Part shown: positions 20,453 through 23,400 of the stretch, piece after piece
How the letters are laid out: each line of letters starts with the position of its first letter
Numbering within the stretch: position 1 is the stretch's first letter
Made by a program: the position numbers and the translations under genes
From: Escherichia coli
Lineage (GTDB): Bacteria > Pseudomonadota > Gammaproteobacteria > Enterobacterales > Enterobacteriaceae
Length of the DNA: 64,000 bases
Assembly (NCBI RefSeq): GCF_003790525.1
Contig: NZ_CP033633.1
Direction: 5' to 3' (one strand)
Notes under the pieces: model-generated
Seen by the model: the letters and a program-made list of their open reading frames with translations, nothing else
Database searches by the model: none
What the model was told of the DNA's origin: nothing

Positions 20453-23400
20453 TCATCGGCCGGGGCTGTGAGATTGTGCCTGTTGCAGAGTTTTTTCCTG
20501 CCTGTCCTCCGCCTTTTGGCTGTCAGACCATTCTTTCCAGGTCTGCTCAAAACCCAGAGAGCGGAAAAGCTTGTCCGGCTGCTCTTCCGGTTTGTGGATG
20601 GCGGCAAACAACGGGGAGTCCTGTTGCTTCAGGTGAAACTGCATCAACTGTGGGGCAGGACGCTTAGGGCCGTCCGCATCCCGGTTGATGGCCTCACCGT
20701 AACCGGCAAACTGAAGGCCCCTGTCGGTCATGGCGTTGATGACCAGCTGACGGCTGTCCGCTGTCGGGGTGGCCAGTGCCGGGTAAAGGGTGCCGTTCAG
20801 GCGGACCACGCCCTGCATGTATTCGTCGGCGCTTTGTAACAGCAGCAGATCCAGACGCTGGCTTTGTTTGTCGACGGAGAAGATGAGCGGCGTCAGTGTG
20901 GCGGGCGGTGTTCCGTTAAGTGGAACCCGCAGTGCCGGGTCTCGCGGTGCAGCGGCTGGCTGGCGGTCCTCCCCCAGATACAGGGTGTCGGGTACTTTGT
21001 CGGGGAGACGTACATCCTGCATGAGCTGTGGCCATCCCTGCTGTAACAGGGTCATCATCTGGCGGAATGTGGCCGCCGGATATTCCCGGATGTACTGGCC
21101 TTCATGCGGGTTATCATGCGATACGCTGATCCCGTTACAGACCGGTTTCATGGTCCAGATATTTCGCACCCATTCCGGTTTGCCCGGTGATGAAGGTGAT
21201 CTCTCCCGGGCCTGCAATGTCAGTGTGACGGGGTCGCCTTTCTGGTGGTTTTTGACCAGTTCTTCCAGGCCTTTTCCCCAGTATTCCCGTTTGCCACTGC
21301 GGTTGGTGAGCTCCACAAAAAAGCAGCGCCCTTTTCCGGGCGCATACTCTTTTTCTCCGTAGTTTGTCAGGACGGCAGTCACACTTTCACCGGGGCTGAG
21401 CTTGCCGGGCGGCTCTTCCTCCGGTGTGTCGGGTTGCTGCGGCTGTGCACTGACAGGGGCTTTTTCTGGCGCTGACGACGGGGCGGCTGGTTGTTCCGGT
21501 CTGTCGGCCCGGGGGGCTTCAGCTTTTGCCGTGACCGGCGCTTCCGGATGCGGTGTTTCAGCCGTACTGCCTGCAGTTTGCTCTGTTTCTGCTTTCGGTG
21601 ACACAGGGGAGGCCGGTTGTGCCATTGTTGTCTCTTCCGGTGACAGGCGGTTGAGTTCCGGCGTGGGTCTGTGGGTGACGATGGCATCATGCGCCATCCC
21701 TTTCTCCTGGCGGAGTTTTTCCAGCGCAGCCCTCTGGGTGGGGAGTTTCATGCGAACCTTGATGTCGTATTCGACAATCAGTTGCATGGCTTTTTGTTTA
21801 AAGGCATCACTGCCGGTCAGCTCGATAACGCCGCCATAGAAGTTGGTGGCCACAGCAAGGGCAGCCAGAACCTTTTTGTCATCCGCGCTGGCGCCATCCA
21901 CCATTTCGAGACAATAGAGTCTGTCCAGGAAGGCTGGTTCGCCGTCAACACGGTAGAGCGCTGTCCTGTCGGGAAACTCTTCGTGCTCAAGATTTTTAAT
22001 AATCTCGTCCAGGTTGTGCCGCTGCGGACTGTCGGGACGGCGGGGCGCAAAGATAATCGTGTCCGGTTCTGCTGACGATGTGTCTTCCGGGCTGTTTTCC
22101 GGTGGTGATGGTGGTGCGACCTCCTCTGTTGCTGTTTCAGCCTCCGTGGGCTTTTTCTCCTGAATAACGGAAGGTTCTGAGGTGCGTGATTTCCCACCGG
22201 TCAGAAAACGGCGCAGGCGGCTGAAAAGCGATGGTGTTTCAGGGCGGGCTGCTTCATTCTCTGTGCTGGTCTCAGTGGCAGACACAGGACGCTCTTCCTG
22301 CGGTTTATCTTCTGCTGTTGGTTCAGGGGTTGCCTGCTGTACGGGCTGAATTTCTGCTGGTTCAGAAACTGTGTTTGTCTCCGCGTTGTCGGTGTTGTGA
22401 ACAGTGGGGGCCCCCGGAGTGTCAGCGTTGAGATCTTCCGCAAATGCGCTCCAGTCGTCAGCGGTGGCCATGGAGACCTGCACTTGTTCTTCAGACTGCG
22501 TTGTGGTGGAGTGCTGTGTCCCGGCCGCGTCGGAGAGGGAGGTTTCCGGTGTGTCTTCACTCCGGGGATGTTCTTCTGCCTGCGTGCTCTGGTTGTCAGC
22601 GGTGGTGGCAGAGGCTTTTTCTTCACCGGTATCAGCGGTAGCCACAGAGGCATTTTCTTCCCTGGTATCGGCAGCGGAAACAACGTTCTGGTGTGGTTTA
22701 TCTTCTGCGGTCGGTTCAGTGGTTGCCTGCTGCACGGACTGCATCCCGGCAGGTTCAGGAAGCGTTCCTGTTTCTGCTGTGTCGCTGTTGTGAGCGGTGT
22801 CTGTACCTGTGGCGTCTGTATTGAGGTCTTCCTGGTCGCCAGCGGTAGCCGCAGAGGTATTCTCTGTGCCGGTATCAGCGGCAGACGCAATATTCTCCAG
22901 TGGTTTATCCGGGGATAACGTCTCCGCAGTTACTGATTGCAGGGATGCATAGGCGGCATAGTCATCTTCATATGCCTGGTTTTCTGTATCGTCGGAGTGG
23001 GTGTCATAAGGCGTATCCTGTGTCGCCAGCTCCGTTTCCGGGGCTGTGCTCTGTCTGTTTTCAGGGGACATTTGTGGCTTCTCATCTTTTACCGGTGTGA
23101 ATATCAGGTTGCCGATCACGACAGCCTCACGATTGTCGGCAGTGTCACTGTTGGGTGTGGGGATACCGATATGTTTTAACTGTGCGTTCATGGCATTCTG
23201 AAAGTCGTCCCGTCCCCGGCTGGCGTCCAGGTCATTGAAATCGGTCAGTCCCTGTGCTTTTTCCGCCTCCGTAAAGGCCGGAATAATGACTTCGCCATTC
23301 GTGACTTCTGCGGCCTTTGTTGCACTAAAAACCCCTTTGTTAATTTCCCGTTGATGATCGTTGTCGGCACAGAAGACAAAGGGGCTGTCAGTCCAGATTT

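Follow-up and report, generated by a model that had tools for sequence, protein, structure and literature searches.

Probable loss of one repeat unit from an old array in the acidic linker of a sog-type plasmid primase

The window, by which we mean the whole 64,000-nucleotide stretch of Escherichia coli DNA that was analysed, carries a long open reading frame on its minus strand, flanked by traK and traL. The order traJ, traK, sog, traL, DotI/IcmL, DotH/IcmK is collinear with the annotated IncK2/Z and IncI loci, and the coding sequence is 99% identical to that annotated as LPD7 or 'DNA primase' in IncK2/Z plasmids. The protein matches WP_121832067.1 exactly. Judged by its sequence, the gene is a sog-type primase, because it combines a Toprim core bearing the EGYATA motif (aa 266-271) with an I-type operon position and end-to-end homology to R64-type SogL. 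An NCBIfam search with the protein assigned no family, and we found no relevant literature on IncK sog, LPD7, or I-complex plasmid primases. The gene and its main parts are as follows.

20453..24298, minus strand: sog coding sequence, SogL-type plasmid DNA primase (open reading frame; 1281 aa; IncK2/Z-type, I-complex transfer region)
24128..24283, minus strand: DUF5710, the N-terminal domain of Sog (aa 6-57; Pfam PF18974, E=1.2e-8)
23207..23509, minus strand: Toprim primase core (aa 264-364; Pfam Toprim_3, 28.2 bits, just above the cut-off of 27.2 bits)
23069..23071, minus strand: Met410, counterpart of the R64 SogS re-initiation codon (aligns with Met412 of the R64-type reference, L004)
22229..23071, minus strand: acidic, probably disordered linker (aa 410-690; composition, no Pfam family, low pLDDT)
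22184..22231, minus strand: basic helix SLFSRLRRFLTGGKSR at the end of the acidic linker (aa 690-705; kept in all alleles)
21704..21958, minus strand: LPD7 domain (aa 781-865; Pfam PF18821, E=9e-10)

As the R64-type reference we used the SogL of L004, an IncI-type protein with the length published for R64 SogL, 1255 aa (PMC6112013). It aligns with the window protein from end to end, with conserved N-terminal, LPD7 and C-terminal blocks. Indeed, the SogL/SogS gene of IncI1 R64/ColIb-P9 has the same position in the transfer operon and its SogL has the same order of parts: DUF5710, Toprim with EGYATA, acidic linker, basic helix (SSFLDKARGFF in the R64-type protein), LPD7, Pro-rich linker and C-terminus. 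The slot upstream of sog differs, being occupied by nuc in IncI1 R64/ColIb-P9 and by a different small gene in the window. The folded parts have diverged under purifying selection (dN/dS 0.13-0.17), whereas the two acidic linkers are essentially unalignable (dN 0.92); the DDW..F.AEL island of the window protein aligns with DKDWREFEAEL of the R64-type protein.

Few proteins are known to pass in bulk from the donor into the recipient during conjugation, and Sog is one of them. For ColIb-P9 and R64 its passage to the recipient has been described (PMC6112013, PMC8406263), and in R64 an in-frame internal start gives the short form of the SogL/SogS pair (PMC6112013). This start is conserved at the beginning of the window linker. 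Initiation at Met412 of the reference gives 844 aa, exactly the published SogS length (PMC6112013), and initiation at Met410 of the window protein gives a predicted SogS-like product of 872 aa; the position is ATG or GTG in every allele examined (GTG in two). In SogL the acidic linker would thus connect the primase domain with the C-terminal part, and in the predicted short form it would be an N-terminal tail. One further entry annotated 'sogS' (H40) is a truncated remnant adjoining a transposase and was set aside as uninformative on the SogS start. RP4 TraC is likewise a conjugative primase made as two in-frame products. IncM pCTX-M3 has a large transfer-region primase, Pri, with potential long and short forms from one frame and only distant similarity to SogL, 23-30% identity (PMC6112013).

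The region of aa 410-745 has a pI of 4.05 and a net charge of -54, and 82% of its residues are S/T/A/P/Q/E/D/N/G; hydrophobic residues make up 11% of the linker and its GRAVY is -1.09. A Pfam search over the linker found no family. In an AlphaFold2 model built on a shallow 10-sequence alignment, pLDDT is below 50 across aa 380-742 and 50-80 in the flanking domains, and the model places just two helices in the linker region, one of them the basic helix. A disordered linker is recognised by low hydrophobicity and a high net charge, together with the lack of a domain match or of a confident predicted structure, and in our opinion this one is probably disordered, mostly on the strength of its composition.

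Within this linker, between Toprim and the LPD7/transport region where the earlier note had placed them, there are indeed internal repeats.

22832..22909, minus strand: partial unit 0, consisting of just the tail module, DKPLENIASAADTGTENTSAATAGDQ (aa 464-489; 76% identity over 70 nt by blastn, E=1.3e-8)
22637..22831, minus strand: unit 1, with head EDLNTDA..AET, core EPAGMQSVQQATTEPTAEDKP (22694-22756) and tail (aa 490-554)
22601..22672, minus strand: tandem pair of 12-aa (36-nt) tail modules, ADTREENASVAT and ADTGEEKASATT, at 36-nt spacing
22439..22600, minus strand: unique spacer between units 1 and 2 (aa 567-620; 162 nt), ending in the conserved acidic-aromatic island ADDWSAFAEDL (22430-22462)
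22232..22438, minus strand: hybrid unit 2/3, core EPAEIQPVQQATPEPTAEDKP (22301-22363; aa 621-689; three-way DNA comparison)

The linker of the window protein thus holds two units of about 70 aa, with the consensus aEDLNADa..T.H.T..AET...sEPAe.QPVQQatpEpTAEDKPqEe.vvSAtdT. Each consists of a head (EDLNAD..AET), a core (SEPAxxQPVQQATPEPTAEDKP) and an acidic tail (SAxDTxxEN). The segments at about 22300-22370 and 22690-22770, first taken for the whole repeat, coincide with the two conserved cores, and the full unit is longer. The related shorter copies mentioned with them also exist, as tail modules of 12 aa. They lie at 22832-22909, 22637-22672, 22601-22636 and 22232-22300, with blastn E values from 1e-8 to 2e-5.

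The linker is heavily biased in composition, and Tandem Repeats Finder reported no array in the gene; one could therefore argue that there is no true repeat and that the similarity reflects only an acidic, T/A/P/E-rich composition. We reject this, and regard it as having practically no chance of being correct. On ungapped DNA comparison 22299-22439 matches 22692-22832 over 141 nt at 74% identity, and gapped blastn of sog against itself gives 185 nt at 71% identity with E=1.5e-20. At the protein level 42 of 73 positions are identical between units (58%), with E=3e-21 in a segment-against-segment BLASTP with compositional adjustment. The Smith-Waterman self-similarity score is 184, against 66 +/- 10 in 500 shuffles that keep composition (z about 12), whereas the equally biased R64-type linker lacks self-similarity (z=0.4). 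The self-comparison proposed earlier therefore finds repetition far above compositional bias. That Tandem Repeats Finder is blank is due to the divergence of the units and to the unique sequence between units 1 and 2. Self-BLASTP of the whole protein listed no off-diagonal matches either, and we think that the full-length self-match masks them.

The earlier note went further and saw in these repeats an expansion relative to R64, which would lengthen the linker and either tune export of the primase or act as a slippage-prone length switch. Its figure of about 26 extra residues is numerically correct (1281 against 1255 aa), but they do not come from repeats: the acidic linker of the window protein is 13 aa shorter than that of the R64-type protein (293 against 306), and two other segments account for the surplus (+17 and +24). 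Moreover, a search of the R64-type linker for diverged copies came out negative: that linker does not repeat internally and resembles the unit in composition only (z 0.4-1.4), therefore no expansion relative to R64 can be defined.

The comparison with closer relatives points in the opposite direction. The nearest is the three-unit Sog of the IncK2/Z plasmid pLH10-b-1-A (WP_116836911.1, 1353 aa; L001), which is about 99.8% identical to the window allele outside a gap and has the same units 1 and 3, flanks and operon. The two genes differ by 7 substitutions in 3846 nt and by a single gap of 216 bp; exactly 216 bp (72 aa, one unit) are missing from the window gene, in frame. The match on the left runs up to TTCTGAACC, and the match on the right, shifted by 216 bp, runs down to TTCTGAACC, so that the right part of unit 2 and the left part of unit 3 are absent. 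What is left is a hybrid unit, its left part that of unit 2 of the three-unit allele and its right part that of unit 3.

22359..22367, minus strand: deletion junction, 9-bp TTCTGAACC (codes S-E-P), common to units 2 and 3 of the three-unit parent

In the three-unit allele, units 2 and 3 have a dS of 0.79 and only about 68% DNA identity near the junction. The gene is otherwise 99.8% identical between the two plasmids, therefore the third unit cannot come from a recent duplication. On this sequence evidence the window allele is a contraction, with two units in place of the three that are normal in its relatives (1335-1353 aa): it lacks a 72-aa unit which its 99%-identical relative and nearly all related plasmids possess, and the talk of expansion has to be turned around. 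We would reconstruct the history as follows. The usual state would be an array of three old, diverged units of about 70 aa in the linker; units 2 and 3 would have become misaligned at their common 9-bp TTCTGAACC, a unit-length segment of 216 bp would have been lost in frame, and this loss would have left the hybrid unit. Judging from the anatomy of the junction, the most likely process was replication slippage independent of RecA, or else recombination at short homology, since RecA-dependent exchange is inefficient over as little as 9 bp. The L001-type allele also contains longer in-register identities, of 15 bp and 12 bp, yet it was the 9 bp that were used.

Short-read assemblers can collapse repeats, and among the 443 matching plasmid records (PLSDB) and the 343 matching complete E. 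coli genome records none crosses the window junction at an identity of at least 95%. This might raise the suspicion that the assembly created the short allele by mistake. We consider that very improbable. The units differ by about 30% in DNA, too much for collapse; the junction is precise and keeps the frame; the same 1281-aa protein occurs on 3 contigs under 4 accessions, one of the contigs being 139,752 bp long; and similar independent deletions occur in other complete plasmids.

The best documented of these is in pCFSAN083829_2 (CP070395.1, 1269 aa). Like the window allele it has lost one unit in frame between units 2 and 3, but independently, in another sublineage and by exactly 222 bp. 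Its junction is a 25-bp identity that ends in TTCTGAACC, as at the window junction, and, unlike the deletion from the L001-type parent, it took the longest identity available. The parent of this allele is L009/P0033-like, a type in which one 12-aa tail module is missing as well; L005 and P0033 are alleles with a single copy in place of the tail module pair. The deletion junctions of two further alleles, P0108 and P0122, lie elsewhere. Four-unit alleles carry nearly identical duplications of about 120 aa in which the unique spacer is duplicated too.

In all we count at least four independent one-unit losses and two gains, all rare. Sog of this lineage ranges over 1269-1463 aa and 2-4 units. The survey of linker length among related plasmids, suggested earlier as a check, bears out that the acidic linker is the only length-variable segment (281-475 aa), all others being constant; the linkers of the natural alleles, 281, 293, about 350-365 and 475 aa, differ by whole units. 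Of 1260 protein clusters, the 120 most similar to the query include 2 two-unit and 3 four-unit clusters, and the rest (1315-1353 aa) belong to the three-unit class. An even sample of 60 from the 443 plasmid records has the span longer by 216 bp in 45 of 60, the window span in 0 of 60, and a departure from the three-unit state in 1 of 60. Since one count covers 120 clusters chosen by similarity and the other 60 records, the allele frequencies are rough. Five clusters of 1343 aa have just 2 regex matches each, which we ascribe to motif substitutions, and they are counted in the three-unit class.

These data also show that calling the linker slippage-prone was an overstatement. A hypermutable locus of that kind would have near-identical head-to-tail units, frequent polymorphism among relatives and frameshifts that switch the gene on and off. 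Here the units are only 68-72%, at the widest 68-76%, identical in DNA, a unique spacer intervenes and there is no Tandem Repeats Finder array; the three-unit state dominates; and every indel seen is a multiple of 3 (216 bp, 222 bp, 36 bp, about 360 bp), so that the reading frame is always kept. Expansion with tuning of export, or with a length switch, can appeal to alleles with 2, 3 and 4 units in the sole length-variable part of the protein and to the export of Sog proteins to recipients (PMC6112013, PMC8406263). However, with a window allele that is itself a one-unit deletion, the extra residues elsewhere, units only about 70% identical and variants confined to 1 of 60 sampled plasmids and 5 of the best 120 clusters, we consider it improbable.

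In-frame variation in the copy number of repeat units in disordered protein linkers is a general phenomenon. Sog resembles it in that changes are unit-length, in frame and at short homologies, with the folded domains untouched; it differs from frequently slipping, near-identical tandem repeats in the age of its units (about 70% DNA identity) and the rarity of the changes. The units are indeed old (dS 0.8-0.96), and by their sequences they seem to be under moderate purifying selection: dN/dS between units is 0.27-0.40, over 64-66 codons with dS near saturation. The corresponding ratios for orthologues are 0.24-0.45 within the linker and 0.12-0.17 for the folded domains.

This constraint could be taken to mean that the units are functional modules, the core SEPAxxQPVQQATPEPTAEDKP serving as a putative short linear motif bound by a component of the secretion system, a chaperone, a recipient factor or some other partner; the number of copies would determine avidity, so that an allele with two units would work differently, and more weakly. 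The core is best conserved across paralogous copies that are near synonymous saturation (dS 0.8-0.96), and three units strongly predominate. On the contrary, a search among 1.84 billion representatives returned 13 matches to the unit, of which the four fetched are Sog or Sog fragments; the unit is confined to Sog of this lineage. The functional R64-type Sog does without it altogether, and two- and four-unit alleles persist on conjugative-typed plasmids. We therefore hold such a role for the units to be unlikely. More doubtful still is the specific version in which the 21-aa core is a binding motif whose copy number sets the recruitment or passage of Sog via the I-type secretion machine, or its action on the incoming DNA. 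If it were true, however, the natural 2-, 3- and 4-unit alleles would form a ready-made series altering plasmid transfer efficiency.

The explanation that we prefer, and consider likely, is an old array of units of about 70 aa in a probably disordered acidic linker, reduced to two units by one in-frame loss, with the linker acting as a length-tolerant spacer. Because units are lost and gained independently, always in frame and always rarely, the linker would be a flexible spacer made of moderately constrained peptide and not a fast-switching repeat. A two-unit linker would be functionally tolerated; the 293-aa acidic stretch of the window protein is close in length to the 306 aa of the functional R64-type protein. 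The window gene is then an unremarkable in-frame variant, in length, of a gene already known. What chiefly needs correcting in the first reading is the direction of the change, which removed a unit and did not add one, and its bearing on R64: it does not account for the difference in length. IncK2/Z plasmids and their relatives play an important part in carrying resistance genes in E. coli of poultry and human origin, and alleles that differ by whole units offer a simple handle on linker length and motif number in Sog export and plasmid spread.

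The repeats lie inside a gene with the following features.

20453-24298, minus strand: sog open reading frame, 3846 nt, 1281 aa
aa 6-57 of its product: DUF5710 (Pfam)
aa 264-364: Toprim_3 (Pfam, N-terminal part scanned by itself)
aa 781-865: LPD7 (Pfam)

An EGYATA primase motif stands at aa 266. At DNA level it shares 99% identity with the sog CDS of pLH10-b-1-A (IncK2/Z), 92-93% with sog of many other IncK2/Z plasmids and, in parts only, about 75% with IncI1-type sog; the gene order (traJ, traK, sog, traL, DotI/IcmL, DotH/IcmK) is the same in annotated relatives. Domains, motif, DNA identity and gene order together identify the gene as a sog-type primase of the IncK2/Z lineage. 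The earlier note, which viewed it in the frame of R64, was right about the type of protein, but its lineage is not that of R64 (IncI1).

We agree with the earlier note that the linker contains genuine internal repeats. Without gaps, 22299-22439 and 22692-22832 share 74% identity over 141 nt; gapped blastn of sog against itself finds 185 nt at 71% identity (E=1.5e-20) and three shorter repeat families (E 1e-8 to 2e-5). The test set beforehand was self-similarity beyond compositional bias, and indeed the best local protein alignment of the linker halves scores 184, against 66 +/- 10 in 500 shuffles keeping composition (z ~12), while BLASTP with compositional adjustment aligns unit with unit at 42/73 identities (E=3e-21). 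A whole unit has about 70 aa, with a head (EDLNAD...H.T..AET), a core and an acidic tail (SAxDTxxEN...). The two stretches of about 70 bp singled out at first are the conserved cores, and the "shorter copies" are tail-only modules of about 12 aa.

22832-22909: tail-only module ahead of unit 1
22694-22756: unit core, EPAGMQSVQQATTEPTAEDKP
22637-22672 and 22601-22636: tandem pair of tail-only modules after unit 1
22301-22363: unit core, EPAEIQPVQQATPEPTAEDKP

We disagree, however, with the suggestion of repeat expansion. The window protein differs from the three-unit protein of pLH10-b-1-A (1353 aa) in one gap of 72 aa. From the left, the window DNA follows the pLH10-b-1-A allele as far as gene position 1940; from the right it does so, offset by 216 nt, as far as position 1932, and outside the gap there are only 7 substitutions. 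In the three-unit allele the overlap, TTCTGAACC (22359-22367), occurs in units 2 and 3 alike, thus the second unit of the window is a hybrid, its left part from unit 2 and its right part from unit 3. Could the longer allele instead have gained a unit? Judging from divergence, units 2 and 3 cannot be a fresh duplication, because they share only about 68% DNA identity near the junction and have a dS of 0.79, while elsewhere the gene and the window agree at about 99.8%. The polarity is clear: the window copy is a recent contraction, one 72-aa unit (216 nt) fewer than in pLH10-b-1-A. An assembly artefact was also considered; the exact 1281-aa protein (WP_121832067.1) is on record under 4 accessions and on 3 contigs, the longest of 139,752 bp, which argues against it.

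The 26 residues counted in excess of R64 Sog hold as a number (1281 against 1255 aa), but they are not repeat expansion either. R64 SogL has 1,255 aa and SogS, made by in-frame re-initiation, 844 aa (PMC6112013). In L004, an IncI-type SogL of 1255 aa used in place of R64 SogL, starting at Met412 yields a product of exactly 844 aa; the counterpart of this codon in the window is Met410 (23069-23071), and the acidic linker accordingly begins where SogS would start. This codon is ATG in five other alleles examined and GTG in two (L006 and L007), where the long form has Val for Met and the start codon is still usable, a pattern that fits selection for internal initiation. By segment, the window protein has 2 aa fewer at the N-terminus, 13 fewer in the acidic linker, 17 more after the basic helix and 24 more in a second, Pro-rich linker. 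The R64-type acidic linker (306 aa) has no repeat, showing self-similarity neither in DNA nor in protein (z=0.4) and resembling the unit no more than composition explains (z 0.4-1.4), whereas that of the window carries the units within 293 aa. Most of the surplus comes from the second linker, a Pro/Ala/Glu-rich stretch (about 21170-21427, aa 958-1043) that separates the LPD7 block from the C-terminal domain; across all IncK2/Z alleles its length between anchors stays at 86 aa. Among the few alignable positions of the acidic linkers is ADDWSAFAEDL (22430-22462), resembling DKDWREFEAEL of L004; this acidic-aromatic island, of which four-unit alleles carry a duplicate, may represent a conserved short motif.

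The linker is nevertheless the length-variable region of Sog, as had been proposed: between conserved anchors, IncK2/Z segments are of constant length except the acidic linker (281-475 aa). A 301-nt junction probe found matches in 443 plasmid records and in 343 from complete E. coli genomes; the window junction was present at 95% identity or more in none of them. With a 1301-nt linker probe, 45 of 60 plasmid records sampled evenly from the 443 had a span longer by 216 nt (1517 nt), one (CP070395.1) a shorter span, and none that of the window. The best 120 protein clusters comprise one two-unit cluster of 1269 aa and one of 1281 aa, about 115 three-unit clusters (1315-1353 aa) and three four-unit clusters (1458-1463 aa); five 1343-aa clusters with only 2 regex matches each were counted as three-unit, motif substitutions being taken as the reason. 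The span of CP048936.1, where no gene is annotated, is 1519 nt (+2), and several database "proteins" (P0124, P0129) are frameshifted translations of the linker; sequencing errors or pseudogenes are the probable cause in this GC-rich low-complexity stretch.

The two-unit allele of CP070395.1 differs from the parent-like three-unit L009 by an exact 222-bp deletion and arose independently. Its crossover lies within a 25-bp identity, CAGAAACAGCCTCACCTTCTGAACC, ending in the 9-mer of the window junction. The junction of P0108 lies a few codons beyond (EPAGTQPV|RQ), and that of P0122 (L003 sublineage) in the EDLNAD head. The four-unit P0001, P0071 and P0093 share a nearly identical duplication of about 120 aa (tail, spacer, head), and four-unit alleles have at least two unit compositions. 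Taken together, these alleles indicate that the array loses and gains units as a whole, by way of short homologies and never with a change of frame, and that the products are rare. RecA-dependent exchange has minimal homology lengths; on this general ground the 9-bp junction points to RecA-independent slippage, by which the 216 bp would have been lost. In-register identities of 15 and 12 bp, also present in the pLH10-b-1-A type of allele, were left unused.

The units themselves are old. Paralogous units have dS of 0.79-0.96 and dN/dS of 0.27-0.40. When orthologous alleles are compared, the linker has a dN/dS of 0.24-0.45 and the folded domains have one of 0.12-0.17; the peptide sequence of the units is moderately constrained, looser than the domains and not neutral. 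A unit profile run against 1.84 billion representative proteins gave 13 matches, and the four inspected were all Sog or Sog fragments, hence the unit is private to this Sog lineage. Residues 410-745 have a pI of 4.05, a net charge of -54, 82% S/T/A/P/Q/E/D/N/G and only 11% hydrophobic residues, and no Pfam family matched in the linker. In an AlphaFold2 model of aa 250-900, built on a shallow 10-sequence alignment and by itself weak evidence, pLDDT is below 50 across aa 380-742 and 50-80 in the Toprim and LPD7 parts, consistent with a disordered linker; only two short helices are predicted there, an acidic Tyr-rich one (about aa 442-454) and the basic SLFSRLRRFL closing the linker. In our opinion these data are best explained by the rare and recent loss, in frame, of one unit from an old array of diverged units, in a putatively disordered acidic linker that would tolerate changes of length.

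Sog proteins reach recipients in large numbers (PMC8406263; PMC6112013); the tuning of this export by the linker, which the earlier note proposed, is hypothetical. Transposon-insertion sequencing of an IncI1 plasmid gave the SogS region a score of 1.00 for being required in transfer and rated the whole SogL as 0.74 required and 0.26 non-essential (PMC4288162), a result silent on the need for the linker itself, because linker insertions would truncate the C-terminal part. We found no account of repeats or length variation in the literature on the IncK2/Z sog linker. The natural two-, three- and four-unit alleles could serve as a test series for a possible role of the conserved core as a functional motif.

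Two further observations concern the gene and its surroundings. First, sog is mosaic. Its synonymous divergence from another related allele, L002, climbs along the gene (L003 was also compared), with a dS of 0.011 over the N-terminal 400 codons that rises to 0.06 for the linker and 0.19 for the LPD7 block and reaches 0.68 over the last 240 codons, which points to recombination between plasmid lineages within the gene. Between traK and sog lies a 1,038-bp segment (24403-25440), missing from pLH10-b-1-A and flanked by a 71-nt direct repeat of 80% identity (24338-24408 and 25441-25511); the whole traK-sog interval has a G+C of 0.46, against 0.57 for sog. The segment contains one open reading frame.

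24652-25233, minus strand: 193-aa protein with a hydrophobic N-terminus

This protein gave nothing above cut-off in Pfam and no PADLOC match. In IncI1 plasmids the same slot is occupied by nuc, whereas here it holds the gene of the 193-aa protein. The segment matched 101 related plasmid records, 100 of which have it at 95% identity or more.
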